A stretch of 9,289 nt of DNA from IMG/VR virus record IMGVR_UViG_2537561823_000013; one strand, written 5' to 3'. Below the pieces are notes generated by a model that did not search any database, was not told where the DNA came from, and was given only the letters and a program-made list of their open reading frames with translations. Shown here one piece after another: positions 3,624-8,934 of the stretch; positions within the stretch are counted from its first letter, which is position 1, and the number at the start of each line of letters is the position of its first letter. This stretch comes from a virus (lineage: Duplodnaviria; Heunggongvirae; Uroviricota; Caudoviricetes). The position numbers and the translations under genes were made by a program.

Positions 3624-3911
3624 ATGAAACAGAAAATTTCTGGCTTTACTGCCAGCGGCCCCGCTCGGCCTGAAATCCGCCCCGGCGATATTTTCCGGGA
3701 TAACTATGGCGGCACGGTAACGATAAAAGGCGTGGCAGAACGGCGCATCACTTACCGCCGTGATGGCTACGAATATGACTGCGTGATGCCTGTTTATCAG
3801 TTCCGGCGTGATTTCACGCTGGTGGGCCATCGTAAAGCCGTAAATCAGAAACGTGCAGCAAGTCATATCCGCAAAATTCGTGAAATGCTGGTCGCAGGGG
3901 GTAAAAAATGA
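3624..3911 (+). CDS. hypothetical protein (95 aa)
   Basis: Open frame in operon context. Its stop overlaps the helicase start (ATGA at 3908-3911). Confidence 0.6.
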   Translation: MKQKISGFTASGPARPEIRPGDIFRDNYGGTVTIKGVAERRITYRRDGYEYDCVMPVYQFRRDFTLVGHRKAVNQKRAASHIRKIREMLVAGGKK

Positions 3912-5314
3912 AACTGGCACCGAACGTAAAACTGTTACCGAAAGATAAACACACTGAGGCGGTTATTTTTGCGGGTGATAATGCTCACTCCTTTGCAGAA
4001 CATTACATGATTGCACAGGCCAAAAAAGCAGGCGATCCCATCCCTCCGGTTTACCTGGGCCGTTATCAGTTAAGCGAACTGGACAACCTGCAGATTGTTG
4101 ATGAGGGGCGATACAGGGTAACGGTGATACGCGCCGGAAATATTGACGAAGCGCAGCTGTTAACCATAGCGACAAAACTGGCGATCGCCGGAGTCCAGGA
4201 AGCGCGGCTGCTTTCTGAAAACTTCGAATTACTGGAGAAATGGACCGACCAGCTTCCACGGCTACGGGAGACATGGGAGAGAGGGGAAAGCCTGATCATG
4301 AATGGAGGAAAACAAAAAATCACGCTACCGATTTCATGGGGTTCTGAGGGATTCGACGCGCAGCAAAGCTACGTAATTAAGGGGCTTATTCCGGCTGAAT
4401 CATTATGCAGCACCTACGGGGCCAGCGGTTCTTATAAATCGTTCCTGGCTATTTCCTGGTCGTGCCATGTTGCCACAGGTATGGCATGGGGAGGCCGCAG
4501 GGTAAGTAAGGGCGCGGTTATCTATATCGCTGGCGAAGGCAGTATGGGCGTAAAACGCCGCGTTAAGGCGTGGGAGATAACCCACGACAAGGTGGTTACG
4601 GATTTGTGCATCGTTAACGCGCCTGTCTTCCCTGCATCGCCTGACTATGTGGAGCAGGTTATCAGGACCGCCGGATTAGTGCAGGACAGAACGGGCGAAA
4701 GGGTGCGGATGATTGTCATTGACACGCTGGCCCGTTGCTTTGGTGGTCATGATGAAAATGACTCCCGCGACATGGGGGCGTTTATCCAGGGGTGTGACGC
4801 GATAAAGCAGGCCACGGGGGCCACGGTTCTGGTTGTGCATCATTCCGGCAAGGATGAGACGAAAGGGGCGCGGGGTTCCAGTGCATTCCGTGCGGCGCTT
4901 GATGCTGAGTTCCGAATCAGTCGGGAACATTCAGAGGCTACGGCGCTGGTTGCAGCATGTACGAAGATGAAGGACGCGGAGGAGCCAAAAGAAAGCGCCT
5001 ACGACCTTAAGAGCGTGGAGGTATTTACGGATCCTGAGGGTGAAGAAATCGTGTCCATGGTGGTGATTGACGTTCCCCGCGCCCCTGCTGAACTGGAGCG
5101 CATAGAGGAGGCCGGGAACAAGACGGAAAATCACACGGCTTTATGGGGTTGTATCCGGTCACGTATACAGCATGGTGATAAATGCACGATCCCGCTGCTA
5201 CGTGATGACATGAAAAAGCTGGGATATGACACAAAACACCTTAAACGATGGTTAGCCAAACTGGAAAAAGACGGCGTGATTTGCGTCGATGGGGATGATG
5301 TTCACCCACTGTAA
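3908..5314 (+). CDS. RepA-type (RecA-fold, AAA_25-like) replicative helicase / replication initiator with C-terminal putative DNA-binding domain
   Basis: 468 aa. P-loop-like TYGASGSYKSF, Walker B RMIVIDTLARCF, and VLVVHHSGKDETKGARGSSAF typical of the RepA/DnaB-like plasmid and satellite helicase family. SD aggggg sits about 9 nt upstream. No zinc-finger or Toprim primase signature was seen in the N-terminal 150 aa. Confidence 0.85.
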   Translation: MKLAPNVKLLPKDKHTEAVIFAGDNAHSFAEHYMIAQAKKAGDPIPPVYLGRYQLSELDNLQIVDEGRYRVTVIRAGNIDEAQLLTIATKLAIAGVQEARLLSENFELLEKWTDQLPRLRETWERGESLIMNGGKQKITLPISWGSEGFDAQQSYVIKGLIPAESLCSTYGASGSYKSFLAISWSCHVATGMAWGGRRVSKGAVIYIAGEGSMGVKRRVKAWEITHDKVVTDLCIVNAPVFPASPDYVEQVIRTAGLVQDRTGERVRMIVIDTLARCFGGHDENDSRDMGAFIQGCDAIKQATGATVLVVHHSGKDETKGARGSSAFRAALDAEFRISREHSEATALVAACTKMKDAEEPKESAYDLKSVEVFTDPEGEEIVSMVVIDVPRAPAELERIEEAGNKTENHTALWGCIRSRIQHGDKCTIPLLRDDMKKLGYDTKHLKRWLAKLEKDGVICVDGDDVHPL

Positions 5315-5514
5315 AAAGTGGGCGTTAAAAGTGGGAATAGTGGGTAATTTAACTGGAATTTAACAAAATCGCCCACTTTCCCACGTGTATACATCCCAAA
5401 AAGTGGGCACTAAAAAAATTCTTATGAAACAGTACGATATAAAACCACAAAATCCCAGGTGGGACGAAGTGGGAAACCATGAAAAGTGGGTAGAAAAAGT
5501 GGGCACAGGTGGGC
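5303..5514. repeat. iteron array with AT-rich spacer; candidate replication origin
   Basis: Core (A)AGTGGG(N) occurs as direct copies starting at 5316, 5329, 5338, 5401, 5457, 5467, 5484, 5497 and 5507. Inverted copies (CCCAC) are at 5303-5310, 5371-5378 and 5379-5384. An AT-rich stretch at 5409-5456 separates the two clusters. The array begins inside the last codons of the helicase gene. Confidence 0.65.
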
Positions 5515-5516
5515 GC

Positions 5517-5768
5517 ATGACCAGAAAAACCAGAGATAAGACAGCACCAAAATATCGCGCATTAGACATGACAGAGCACGCCTTAAAGGTGGCAATCAGA
5601 ACGATAGACCGCCACGCGGGGGAAGGATACGCGAAAGCACATCCCGAACTGATAAGCGCATTCATGACCACGACGGCGGCAAATTTTGCCACGCTGACAG
5701 AGCGGGAGATTGCGGAAGCTGAACAGGTGACAACCATCAACGTTAAAACCGGAGAGCAGACAGCATGA
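5517..5768 (+). CDS. hypothetical protein (83 aa), start trimmed to exclude the iteron-encoded N-terminus
   Basis: The ORF track starts at 5385, but codons 5385-5516 are the iterons themselves (repeated KVG/EVG/KWV). ATG 5517 follows aggtgg. The stop overlaps the ssb start (ATGA at 5765-5768). Coding status is uncertain. Confidence 0.4.
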   Translation: MTRKTRDKTAPKYRALDMTEHALKVAIRTIDRHAGEGYAKAHPELISAFMTTTAANFATLTEREIAEAEQVTTINVKTGEQTA

Positions 5769-6187
5769 CAGCACAGATAGCAGCTTACGGTCGGCTGGTG
5801 GCTGACCCGCAGTTAAAGACCACCAGCAAAGGGACACAAATGGCGATGGCGGGTATGGCGGTTCCCCTGCCGTGCAGCCAGGCAGATGACGGAACGGCGA
5901 CGATGTGGTTATCTGTCCTGGCGTTTGGCAGACAGGCCGACGCACTGGCAAAACACCACAAAGGCGAACTCCTGAGCGTGGCGGGTAACATGCAGGTGAG
6001 CCAGTGGACAGGCCAGAACGGCAAAACGCGGCAGGGCTGGCAGGTTATCGCAGATAGTGTAATCAGTGCCAGAACGGCGCGACCGGGCGGCAAAAAAGGT
6101 CAACAGGGCCAGGCCACTGACGCATTGAACAGGGCAAAACAACAGTCAGGGAATGATGAACCGTACGGCGATAATATACCGTTTTAA
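5765..6187 (+). CDS. ssb: single-stranded DNA-binding protein (SSB family, OB fold) with C-terminal ...DNIPF tip
   Basis: 140 aa. WLSVLAFGRQADALAKHHKGELLSVAGNMQVSQWTGQNGKTRQGWQVIADSV aligns by eye with E. coli SSB [52 protein letters not shown]. The C-terminus DEPYGDNIPF resembles the canonical DDDIPF tip. SD ggagag lies 9 nt upstream. Confidence 0.8.
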   Translation: MTAQIAAYGRLVADPQLKTTSKGTQMAMAGMAVPLPCSQADDGTATMWLSVLAFGRQADALAKHHKGELLSVAGNMQVSQWTGQNGKTRQGWQVIADSVISARTARPGGKKGQQGQATDALNRAKQQSGNDEPYGDNIPF

Positions 6188-6203
6188 ATTCTGCAAACAA
6201 AAA

Positions 6204-6232
6204 ATGCCGGAAAAAAATAGATTTTCCGGCAT
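6204..6232. terminator. strong hairpin at the replication/morphogenesis boundary; possible terminator, better formed for the minus strand
   Basis: atgccgg (6204-6210) pairs with ccggcat (6226-6232), extendable through A/T pairs (ATGCCGGAAAA / TTTTCCGGCAT). A T-rich tract follows only on the minus-strand transcript (tttttgtttg), not on the plus strand. Confidence 0.4.
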
Positions 6233-6397
6233 GCTACATAAATCCCGACCAAAGGAAGTAAATACATTAACACGAATTATCAGCACTGAAGTTGTCACGG
6301 CAGATTTTATACAACATTGCACTTGGTTGCATGTATTCGCATAGCAGACATCGGTAATAGAATATATTCACAATTATTTGTAATGAATGTAAAGAGG

Positions 6398-7444
6398 ATG
6401 AGTATGGTTGATTTATATTCGCCTACACAGCTTGTGCAGGTGGCTAATGCTGAAGATGTGCAAAAAAAACTAAATGCGTTGTTTACCAGTTTGTTTTTCA
6501 CTCGCTCGGTAATGTTTGAATCGAGAGACATTATTCTTGATACGATCGACGATCCAAATATCCCGATCGCGGCGTTTTGCTCTCCTATGGTGGGCAGTAA
6601 AGTTTCACGAGATGAGGGATACGAATCAAAAACAATTCGCCCAGGCTATATGAAACCGAAAAGCAGTATTGATCCAAATAAGTTAGCTGTGCGCCCTGCT
6701 GGTGTATCACCTGAACAATACAATGCTTTTGGAGCGCGTAATATTAAAGTTAAACAGGCGATTGTAAATCAGGCTAAAGCTATACGTGCACGTATTGAAT
6801 GGATTGCTGTTCAGGCAATCACAACGGGGAAAAATATCATTGAGGGCGATGGGATTGAACGTTATGAACTGGACTGGAATATAAAACCACAAAATATTAT
6901 CACGCAGTCTGGCGGTGCTGAGTGGTCAGGTAAGGATAAAGAAACTTTTGATCCAAATGATGATATTGAGAGCTACGCAGAATTTAGTGAGGGCGTCACT
7001 AATATCATCATTATGGGCGGTAATGTATGGAAGAAATACCGTTCATTCAGAGCGATAAAAGAGGCTCTGGATACCCGTCGTGGTTCTAATTCCGAACTGG
7101 AAACGGCCCTTAAAGACCTTGGTGATTCGGTGAGTTTTAAAGGGTATATGGGCGATGTTGCGATTGTTGTTTACAGCGGACGTTATACCGACGAGGACGG
7201 AACTGAAAAACATTTCCTTGATCCTGATTTGATGGTGCTTGGCAATACGGCTCTTCAGGGGATTGTCGCCTATGGCGGTATTCAGGATCCGGAGCTAATC
7301 CGAATGGGGCTGACTAAAGCCGAACTTGCACCGAAAAACTATATTGTGCCTGGTGATCCGGCTATTGAGTACGTACAAACGCACTCTGCACCACAGCCAA
7401 TACCGGCCCGCATCAATCGTTTTGTTACCGTTCGCATTGGCTAA
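6398..7444 (+). CDS. major capsid protein, phage lambda gpE family (HK97 fold)
   Basis: Long collinear similarity to lambda gpE as recalled, for example NIITQSGGAEWSGKDKETFDPNDDIESYA...FRAIKEALDTRRGSNSELETALKDLG...GYMGDVAIVVYSG...MVLGNTALQGIVAYGGIQD versus lambda NITQSGGTEWSKRDKSTYDPTDDIEAYA...FKAVKEKLDTRRGSNSELETAVKDLG...GMYGDVAIVVYSG...MVLGNTQARGLRTYGCIQD. Start is MSMVD (6398), mirroring the lambda E MSM N-terminus; the SD aagagg (6392-6397) would favour ATG 6404. The ORF-track start 6317 was rejected. Confidence 0.9.
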   Translation: MSMVDLYSPTQLVQVANAEDVQKKLNALFTSLFFTRSVMFESRDIILDTIDDPNIPIAAFCSPMVGSKVSRDEGYESKTIRPGYMKPKSSIDPNKLAVRPAGVSPEQYNAFGARNIKVKQAIVNQAKAIRARIEWIAVQAITTGKNIIEGDGIERYELDWNIKPQNIITQSGGAEWSGKDKETFDPNDDIESYAEFSEGVTNIIIMGGNVWKKYRSFRAIKEALDTRRGSNSELETALKDLGDSVSFKGYMGDVAIVVYSGRYTDEDGTEKHFLDPDLMVLGNTALQGIVAYGGIQDPELIRMGLTKAELAPKNYIVPGDPAIEYVQTHSAPQPIPARINRFVTVRIG

Positions 7445-7453
7445 GGGGGAGCA

Positions 7454-7795
7454 ATGGCTACTCATTACACTGAACTCATGTCTGGTACTGAAGCACTGGT
7501 TACTACGCTGGGGATATTTTCAGCCAATAAAGGGGTAATACCTGCGTTTACGCCACTGATGCAGGAAGATGCAACTGGTGCGCTAGTGGTATGGGATGGA
7601 ACGAGCGCAGGCAAAGCGGTTTATGTTTCCGCTGTACAAATCGACACAGCGAAAAAAACACAGGCACAGGTTTATAAGACAGGTGTTTTAAATGTTGATG
7701 CTCTGAACTGGCCTGAGTCTGTAAGAGAACTGTCGGCAAAGGTTGCCGCGTTTGTTGGCTCAGGTATTTCTGTTCAGCCGCTGGCTCGTGTGTAA
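7454..7795 (+). CDS. head decoration protein, phage lambda gpD family
   Basis: 113 aa. TPLMQEDATGALVVWDGTSAGKAVYVSAV...YKTGVLNVDALNWPES...AAFVGSGISV matches recalled lambda gpD [29 protein letters not shown]...YKSGTFRYEDVLWPEA...TAFAGTAISIV. SD aaggggga lies 5 nt upstream. Confidence 0.85.
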   Translation: MATHYTELMSGTEALVTTLGIFSANKGVIPAFTPLMQEDATGALVVWDGTSAGKAVYVSAVQIDTAKKTQAQVYKTGVLNVDALNWPESVRELSAKVAAFVGSGISVQPLARV

Positions 7796-8280: not shown

Positions 8281-8391
8281 GCTTTTTCAGGGTGGTGGTG
8301 GTGGTTTTGTTGTTTGTTCTATCTCCATGAATGAAAAGGGAAAGATAACACCAACACACCAACCTGAAACCTTAACTAAGTGGGGATATTG
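8281..8391 (+). repeat. divergent cosB-like region with short repeats between cosN and terS; candidate TerS binding sites
   Basis: (GGT)5 at 8291-8305 followed by GTT/TTG-rich tttgttgtttgtt. Tandem CACCAACA / CACCAACC at 8349-8364 is roughly the inverted counterpart. The sequence no longer matches the recalled lambda cosB (AAATTTTCCGGTTTAAGGCGTTTCCGTTCTTCTTCG...). Confidence 0.4.
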
Positions 8392-8934
8392 ATGAAATCG
8401 CACCTGATGAACAAAAAAACTATGGCGCAAAGCTGCCGCGTAAGTGCGACAGCGTTCGACAAGTGGGGAGTGACTCCCGTTGAGCGTAAAGGCCGTGAGG
8501 CGTTTTATGATGTTGCTAGCGTGATAGACAATAGGGTTAACAATGCAATTAACCAACTTACAAACGACAAAGGCGAGATTGATGATGATGAACTTTTACG
8601 CGTAAGAATCAGATTAATGACGGCCCAGGCGGAAGCGCAGGAACTTAAAAACGAGCGCGAACGCGGCGAGGTGATTGATACAAAGTTTTGCATCTACGCG
8701 ATTTCAAAGCTGGCACAACAAATTTCTTCAATCATGGACAGCCTCCCGCTCACAATGCAAAGGCGCTTTCCCGATATAAGGCCGTATATGCTGGATGAAC
8801 TAAAAAGGGAAATAGTCAAAGCATGTAACGCATGTGCAAGACTTGACGAAAACCTGCCACAGATACTGGCTGATTACCTGATGGAAACTACCGGAAACGT
8901 GCCTGAGAAGTTGCTACAGAACAAAGGCGAGTAA
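8392..8934 (+). CDS. terminase small subunit, phage lambda Nu1 family
   Basis: RLMTAQAEAQELKNERERGEVIDTKFCIYAISKLAQQISSIMDSLPLTMQRRFPDI...LKREIVKACNACARLDENLPQILADYL matches recalled lambda Nu1 RLTRAQADAQELKNARDSAEVVETAFCTFVLSRIAGEIASILDGLPLSVQRRFPEL...LKRDIIKAMNKAAALDELIPGLLSEYI. The N-terminus aligns with the Nu1 winged-HTH. The ORF-track start is a GTG at 8380; ATG 8392 has a GGGGA SD 5 nt upstream; ATG 8407 is an alternative. Confidence 0.85.
   Translation: MKSHLMNKKTMAQSCRVSATAFDKWGVTPVERKGREAFYDVASVIDNRVNNAINQLTNDKGEIDDDELLRVRIRLMTAQAEAQELKNERERGEVIDTKFCIYAISKLAQQISSIMDSLPLTMQRRFPDIRPYMLDELKREIVKACNACARLDENLPQILADYLMETTGNVPEKLLQNKGE

Follow-up and report, generated by a model that had tools for sequence, protein, structure and literature searches.

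We identified a gene for an SSB (single-stranded DNA-binding protein) on the plus strand, at positions 5765-6187, of a 9,289-nucleotide viral sequence from the IMG/VR record IMGVR_UViG_2537561823_000013 (Caudoviricetes), the whole of which we refer to as the window. By its layout, the window belongs to a phage-inducible chromosomal island (PICI) of the Gram-negative type, a relative of EcCICFT073, and the gene product is a bacterial-type SSB, an assignment well supported by every sequence comparison and model prediction that we ran. We think it reasonably probable that this protein supplements the supply of SSB at satellite origins and replication forks after helper-phage induction and recruits host partners through a D-x-I-P-F C-terminal tip. 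The gene is genuine and functional-looking, but it is an ordinary component of a phage satellite that is very common in E. coli. The finding is not new, as RefSeq already annotates the protein and the survey in PMC10111431 already lists SSB.

The open reading frame (ORF) encodes 140 amino acids (aa) followed by a stop codon, ends in NDEPYGDNIPF, and corresponds to RefSeq protein WP_000126631.1, named "single-stranded DNA-binding protein". A Shine-Dalgarno-like GGAGAG, read from the sequence at 5751-5756 (+), lies 8 nt 5' of the ATG. PF00436 (SSB), the sole Pfam family matched, covers aa 5-99 with an E-value of 7.5e-15 and 55.3 bits against a gathering cutoff of 26, while the NCBIfam model TIGR00621 scores 57.1 bits against a cutoff of 53.95, and PHROG 44, "single strand DNA binding protein", matches with an E-value of 1.6e-37. 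An AlphaFold2 monomer model, computed from a 33-sequence alignment, has a predicted local confidence (pLDDT) >92 over aa 1-100, and these residues (5765-6064, +) make up the predicted OB-fold core for binding single-stranded DNA (ssDNA), with strands at 3-11, 16-19, 25-36, 44-54, 69-82, and 88-100 and a helix at 55-62. In a Foldseek search of the PDB, all of the top 50 matches listed were bacterial SSBs. The best among them was Staphylococcus aureus SsbA (7ym1), with an E-value of 1.9e-9 and a template modelling (TM) score of 0.78 on the target, and TM scores to solved SSBs reached 0.81 on the target among the matches listed. The initial annotation had described an element-encoded SSB of the OB-fold type that is shorter than the host protein, and the curated models, AlphaFold2, and Foldseek agree with it; a spurious OB-fold match is ruled out by the scores of PF00436 and TIGR00621 above their cutoffs, by the structure prediction, and by the fold search. 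In addition, aa 71-140 match the 71-position profile of PHROG 28350 ("unknown function") with an E-value of 2.3e-44, and this is probably a family of shortened gene calls of the same SSB.

Three of the four aromatics that stack on ssDNA in E. coli SSB are kept, with W54, F60, and W88 corresponding to W48, F54, and W81 here, and these are conserved in 59, 64, and 41 of 64 family sequences, respectively. The position of W40 is C37 in our protein and is not conserved, nor is the position of H55, which is occupied by Leu. The calculated isoelectric point is 9.5, versus 5.4 for the host E. coli SSB. We infer the binding of ssDNA by this protein, its oligomeric state, its docking of partners, and its share in satellite replication. 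If the ORF were instead what is left of a captured ssb gene that is decaying or no longer functional, its small size, its lost W40 equivalent, its truncated tail, and the truncation of some database relatives would all be accounted for. This reading is effectively refuted by selection and conservation. The pairwise ratio of nonsynonymous to synonymous divergence (dN/dS) of ssb is 0.14-0.29 against eight homologues, with dS up to >2, so that the gene is, by this measure, under purifying selection. Furthermore, the frame is intact, 115 of the 120 close-relative clusters keep the tip, several genera carry the gene in the same position, and the fold is predicted with high confidence.

The location of the gene within a replication module bears on its likely role. 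The initial annotation had assumed a mobile element that depends on the host replisome, which fits an island encoding its own initiator-helicase and no polymerase. The initiator is a RepA-family replicative helicase of 468 aa (3908-5314, +; AAA_25, PF13481, E-value 6.8e-43), which also matches PHROG 2850 and primase/helicase PHROGs and is named "helicase RepA family protein" in RefSeq. Directly after the repA stop codon, at 5316-5503 (no strand assigned), seven AAGTGGG iterons form two groups around an AT-rich stretch in a region with a GC content of 39-42%. Over the whole window, AAGTGGG occurs nine times against an expected 1.1, with seven of the nine copies in this region, and none of 200 shuffled sequences reached nine. 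The origin architecture published for PICIs is alike, with two iteron sets placed immediately 3' of the initiator on either side of an AT-rich region (PMC6092414). The 5316-5503 region is the probable satellite origin, judging from its repeats, base composition, and position, and the SSB gene lies ~260 bp downstream of the iteron array. "Primase, SSB and DUF5906" form the replication category described for PICIs, colocalised with the origin (PMC10111431).

Between the origin and the SSB gene lies a small ORF of 83 aa (5517-5768, +; RefSeq WP_001485926.1), which matches PHROG 1231, a family of unknown function, with an E-value of 1.3e-49. Its stop codon overlaps the SSB start codon (ATGA), and because of this overlap the two genes are probably translationally coupled. 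The small ORF co-occurs with the SSB gene in at least 1454 complete E. coli genomes and also in EcCICFT073. It is confined to Escherichia/Shigella, apart from one record labelled Citrobacter freundii that is flagged UNVERIFIED_ORG, and it is absent beside the SSB gene in Leclercia, Citrobacter, Edwardsiella, and Scandinavium islands. It had no match in Pfam, PADLOC, or a named PHROG, and its AlphaFold2 model is a helical hairpin of low confidence (pLDDT 60).

According to the explanation that we favour, a helper phage would induce the island and lead to its excision, after which RepA would open the iteron origin at ~5316-5503 and the host replisome would make many copies of the island. The island SSB would be produced from the same rightward operon, coupled in translation to the small upstream ORF, and would coat ssDNA at the origin and forks. 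There it would add to the host SSB pool, which must cover helper and satellite replication together. Its conserved D-x-I-P-F tip would dock host SSB-interacting proteins, such as DNA polymerase III (Pol III) chi, DnaG, and PriA.

Evidence for such a general, host-directed role comes from related islands. Three unrelated types of replicase precede the SSB gene, namely AAA_25 RepA, D5_N/DUF5906/Pox_D5 primase-helicases, and DUF927 proteins with or without Toprim, and because of this we take the SSB to be a portable part of the satellite replication module that is not matched to one initiator. The iterons track the replicase, with AAGTGGG/AAGTGAG accompanying RepA and GGTAGAC/CTCTACC accompanying the P4-type primase, while the DUF4222 protein encoded upstream of the replicase and the SSB stay homologous. 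Iteron regions following the replicase were located at 5316-5503 of the window and, in the comparison loci, at L012 7798-8004, L002 8677-8970, L013 7648-8004, and L015 8994-9288. The iterons change but the SSB stays constant, and both of its linker alleles, described below, occur with RepA as well as with primase. We favour host partners because the SSB is independent of replicase type and the small ORF is absent outside Escherichia/Shigella.

Several points weigh against this explanation. An EcCICFT073 construct described as rep plus ori replicated autonomously in DH5alpha, and the SSB is never mentioned in that report (PMC6092414); because rep and ori sufficed there, the SSB is probably an accessory and not essential to the replicon. 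The protein is also far from the host SSB (phmmer E-value 4.6e-4 versus 1EQQ), from which it differs in isoelectric point, tail, and tip acidity, and the W40 and H55 equivalents lack conservation. Its affinity for host partners could be lower, since the equivalents of D172 and D174, which make polar contacts in the published model of chi bound to SSB (PMC3045619), are changed. Among the papers that we searched, none reported a functional study or other experimental test of a PICI SSB.

The last nine residues of the protein, EPYGDNIPF (aa 132-140; 6158-6184, +), were delimited as its tip from the 33-sequence alignment and from tip statistics; a tip peptide of the protein reads GNDEPYGDNIPF. As first annotated, and as can be read from the sequence, the ending is DNIPF instead of DDDIPF. 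Among 120 clusters of close relatives, 115 have a D-x-[ILVMA]-[PGS]-F ending and none has DDDIPF. Position -4, counted from the C terminus, is N in 58 of these clusters, D in 23, G in 21, E in 11, and S in 2. In the 33-sequence alignment, which extends down to 30% identity, D136 (-5) and F140 (-1) are invariant and P139 (-2) is nearly so, with N137 (-4) being variable. Since -4 may be N, D, G, E, or S in relatives and is unconstrained in the alignment, the Asn is one allele at the least constrained site of the tip, and we regard it as neutral or near-neutral variation. An Asn codon at this position is a single G-to-A transition away from Asp.

In the model of chi with SSB, P176 and F177 fill a hydrophobic pocket, while D174, D173, and D172 contact R128, R135, and K132 (PMC3045619). 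Compared with this model, the island protein retains both residues of the pocket and the equivalent of D173, has Asn where D174 would be, and has Gly where D172 would be; the Asn can still hydrogen-bond. The last nine residues include two acidic residues, versus four in E. coli SSB. The tip is therefore, as far as its residues tell, a recognisable SSB C-terminal tip (SSB-Ct) with a weaker charge. The earlier suggestion that DNIPF is a meaningful variant that alters the choice of partners is not supported, given the free variation at -4 in 120 clusters and the intact Pro and Phe of the pocket.

Between the core and the tip lies a tail and linker segment (aa 101-131; 6065-6157, +) that contains the motif SARTARPGG, a basic KK patch, and the conserved segment GQQGQATDALNRAKQQ. 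The 33-sequence alignment reveals a family signature, SARTxRPGG, after the OB core, in which R106 and P107 are nearly invariant. The tail is ~40 aa long, versus ~63 aa in E. coli SSB, and the linker, with 15% Gly and 12% Gln, includes a basic stretch that is conserved and, after it, a helix predicted only weakly (GGKKGQQGQATDALNRAKQQ), which AlphaFold2 places at 114-130 with a pLDDT of 53-64. A brief Gly/Gln-rich linker had been proposed at first. The short tail stands, but with this composition and with GGKKGQQGQATDALNRAKQQ conserved, the linker is not a purely low-complexity spacer. The GGKKGQQGQATDALNRAKQQ peptide (aa 109-128; 6089-6148 of the window) is kept across E. coli, Leclercia, and Citrobacter, and between E. 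coli loci that have this form of the linker, its dN is 0.02-0.04 versus a dS of 0.34-0.97. A second, unrelated linker allele (NRRKTTGTQGNQPPAGG) is present in the O157:H7 and CFT073 islands. All four combinations of linker allele and replicase type occur in the five E. coli loci compared, and no association between the two was seen in this small sample.

An alternative to a supplementary role is that the tip of reduced charge (DNIPF, preceded by Gly at -6), together with the conserved linker, retargets the SSB from the host interactome to a partner encoded by the element. The candidates for such a partner are the replicase, the product of the small ORF translated with ssb, and a protein of the helper phage, and in this reading the SSB would tag satellite ssDNA for processing specific to the satellite. 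There is precedent for this in phage HK620, where the SSB tip NDYPPF is needed to recruit Sak4, so that variant tips can dock element partners (PMC5928155). Of the three Asp residues with contacts to chi in the published model, the island tip also lacks two. The peptide GGKKGQQGQATDALNRAKQQ has been conserved as a protein sequence although synonymous changes have reached saturation, a pattern not usual for a simple spacer, and the small upstream ORF is probably coupled to ssb in translation and is inherited with it in E. coli. On the other hand, the free variation at -4 in close relatives means that the Asn itself is not selected, and the occurrence of three unrelated replicase families, together with both linker alleles accompanying RepA and primase, argues against a replicase-specific fit. 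The small ORF is missing beside the SSB gene in the islands of the four other genera named above, and the Pro-Phe end that defines docking of host partners has been retained. We therefore consider retargeting unlikely.

A further alternative is that the SSB acts mainly in conflict, either by competing with the helper phage or host for ssDNA or partners, or by being sensed by, or shielding ssDNA from, an SSB-sensing defence system. Several defence systems are able to tell phage SSBs from the host SSB, and the earlier statement that non-host SSBs can trigger abortive infection agrees with the literature on Retron-Eco8, AbpAB, Hna, and DARNA. The island SSB is highly diverged from the host protein, and its matches in phages are all <30% identical, so it would look non-self; PICIs are also known to interfere with their helpers (PMC6092414). 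However, for this protein the idea is speculation. Among the ten island proteins scanned, the SSB and its neighbours, no match to a PADLOC model rose above noise, and ssb is positioned in the replication module by the origin rather than in an interference or accessory region. In addition, the characterised trigger of Retron-Eco8 is an SSB of the T7 gp2.5 type, and the host SSB of the PF00436 type does not activate the system (PMC13402713). Because the C-terminal tail of the T7-type SSB is dispensable for activation, the tip is not the relevant feature for Retron-Eco8. Overall, a role mainly in conflict strikes us as quite improbable.

Elements of the last two alternatives can be combined. The PICI SSB family, which is short and basic, has a conserved linker peptide, is related only distantly to the host SSB, and is absent from sequenced helper phages, might serve the satellite as a specific organiser, labelling its ssDNA and attracting a particular partner via the linker or tip; being non-self, it may also be sensed by SSB-sensing defence systems or protect against them. 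We offer this as a long shot. If it were true, the range of defence systems that E. coli strains can tolerate would be shaped by carriage of these very common islands. The practical value of the gene is otherwise modest, with about a third of complete E. coli genomes carrying the cassette, and its discovery adds little.

Among known proteins, a close counterpart is the SSB of EcCICFT073, the prototype of Gram-negative PICIs (WP_000126698.1; NC_004431.1 1384538-1384948, E. coli CFT073), which is 69% identical. Both proteins share the OB core, the SARxARPGG motif, and a D-x-I-P-F tip, and both islands have a replicase, an iteron origin, a small ORF with the ATGA overlap, and the SSB gene, followed by capsid and decoration genes. 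The CFT073 protein differs in its length of 136 aa, its NRRKTTGTQGNQPPAGG linker, and its DDIPF end, while its island has a D5_N/DUF5906 primase, GGTAGAC-type iterons, and a roxA-phoQ integration site, as opposed to tRNA-Pro here. The chromosomal SSB of E. coli (1EQQ) resembles the island protein in having one OB fold per chain, equivalents of W54, F60, and W88, a disordered tail, and an IPF end, but it is an acidic protein of 178 aa with the tip MDFDDDIPF, whereas the island SSB is a basic protein of 140 aa that ends in EPYGDNIPF and has little Gly/Pro/Gln repeat in its tail.

More distant relatives include the SSBs of Firmicutes (S. aureus SsbA and SsbB and Bacillus subtilis SsbA) and of staphylococcal and streptococcal siphoviruses, which have a similar compact size and are among the closest matches in both sequence and structure (27-29% identity; TM 0.76-0.81 on the target). 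Their hosts and elements are unrelated to ours, and an identity of <30% reflects shared family membership and not recent exchange. The SSBs of conjugative plasmids, such as the leading-region Ssb of F-type plasmids, are also extra, element-encoded copies and are thought to supplement the host pool. The island SSB differs from the F-type protein in being only distantly related to the host SSB (E-value 4.6e-4) and rare on plasmids. It is also not of the T7 gp2.5 type (~206 aa, with an acidic C-terminal tail), having 140 aa and matching PF00436 only. A likeness to the HK620 SSB, which we draw by description only, is that of a mobile-element SSB in an enterobacterial host whose non-canonical tip still docks (PMC5928155). 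The HK620 protein works with an adjacent recombinase gene, and the island in the window encodes no recombinase.

The cassette of small ORF and SSB gene is widespread: of 5426 complete E. coli genomes, 1869 carry it, with as many as six copies per genome, and its carriers include Nissle 1917, CFT073, and O157:H7. Relatives of the SSB amount to thousands of member sequences in clusters. Nine distant SSB loci came from a single-sequence search. In Escherichia, Leclercia, Citrobacter, Edwardsiella, and Scandinavium, the gene for the homologue directly follows the one for a large replication protein, and an integrase gene lies 6-8 kb upstream of it. Recent capture of ssb from a helper phage was ruled out, as the matches among 50,697 phage records were all <30% identical and included no close relative. 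A plasmid-type SSB was also rejected, as plasmid matches were rare and distant: 49 of 72,556 plasmid records matched, most of them <60% identical and on plasmids predicted to be non-mobilizable, with two predicted to be conjugative. Some satellite-size "plasmids" of Enterobacter (OW969629.1/OW969669.1, 10.6 kb; NZ_CP066105.1, NZ_CP047733.1, and NZ_CP047718.1, 15.5 kb) encode partial SSB homologues with 51% identity over aa 1-86, and these might be excised circular satellites that were assembled as plasmids.

All 9289 bases of the window match, at 100% identity, chromosomal sequence in six complete E. coli genomes, among them that of the enterotoxigenic E. coli (ETEC) strain TW11681, where the island is found between tRNA-Pro/yejM and yejO. 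A 16-bp direct repeat, TTTTTAGCTACACGTT, occurs at 8910-8925 and 19291-19306 of this locus (L001) and bounds ~10.4 kb. Its left copy is ~90 bp left of window position 1, 3' of tRNA-Pro, and its right copy is ~1 kb past the window end, before yejO; from their placement, the two are candidate attL and attR attachment sites.

The gene order begins with a tyrosine integrase (1-1242, +; Pfam Phage_integrase, Phage_int_M, and Arm-DNA-bind_3) beside tRNA-Pro, an AlpA-type regulator/excisionase (1768-1974, +; PF05930, E-value 5.6e-9), a divergent YlcI/YnfO-family gene, an Icd-like gene, and several small ORFs. The middle part comprises a DUF4222 gene that overlaps the repA start (3624-3911, +; PF13973, E-value 1.1e-25), the RepA-family AAA_25 helicase, the intergenic region, the 83-aa ORF, and the SSB gene. 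These are followed by homologues of the lambda gpE-like major capsid protein (6404-7444, +; PF03864, E-value 1.7e-40) and the gpD-like head decoration protein (7454-7795, +; PF02924, E-value 4.6e-15), a second AlpA-like gene, a Nu1-like small terminase subunit (TerS; 8392-8934, +; PF07471, E-value 2.9e-24, and PHROG 57), and a small terminal ORF, the capsid and TerS starts being those of the RefSeq coding sequences. Features of PICIs found here are a size of ~10.4 kb, within the expected ~10-20 kb, an attachment site with a direct repeat and int at one end, the rightward order int-alpA-replicase with an iteron origin 3' of the replicase, and late-gene homologues restricted to capsid, decoration, and TerS, with no tail, lysis, or full morphogenesis set. 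This layout is the published organisation of Gram-negative PICIs (PMC6092414; PMC10111431). A capsid-forming PICI, which has a complete capsid module of its own (HK97-type capsid, prohead protease, portal, head-tail connector, HNH, TerS, and the large terminase subunit, TerL), was ruled out for the window, in which portal, protease, and TerL are absent; the same SSB cassette is present in a genuine capsid-forming PICI (L013). The EcCICFT073 genes c1499 and c1500, equivalent to the capsid and decoration genes, were reported to be dispensable for transfer and interference (PMC6092414). An Rfam search of the window did not find P4 CI, C4, or isrK-like RNA, and no family reached its gathering score.

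Additional observations concern the parts flanking the SSB gene. DUF4222 precedes the replicase in related islands of E. coli, Shigella, and Citrobacter (L002, L006, L011, L012, L013, and L015), and L008 has a homologue upstream. The N-terminal ~130 aa of RepA (aa 1-131; 3908-4300 of the window) are 42-55% identical to the N-termini of P4-type and DUF927-type PICI replicases (L002 6925-7317, as well as L006, L007, and L011), the rest of the protein being unrelated, which suggests an N-terminal domain that is common to PICI replicase types and swapped between them. Two more copies of AAGTGGG, at 8378-8384 and 8461-8467 (+), lie at the start of terS and could be due to chance or be a second RepA-binding site. 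Directly 3' of the SSB gene, the O157:H7 and CFT073 islands carry a gene for a PerC-family regulator (L012 8670-8942 and L015 9960-10208, respectively) that the window does not have. Just 3' of the SSB stop codon in the window, at 6204-6232, is a perfect 11-bp inverted repeat (ATGCCGGAAAA/TTTTCCGGCAT). Its T-run is on the minus strand, and the repeat looks like a terminator of leftward transcription, with no leftward gene nearby. The GC content drops from ~59% in ssb to ~35% at 6200-6500, at the boundary of the replication and late-gene modules.

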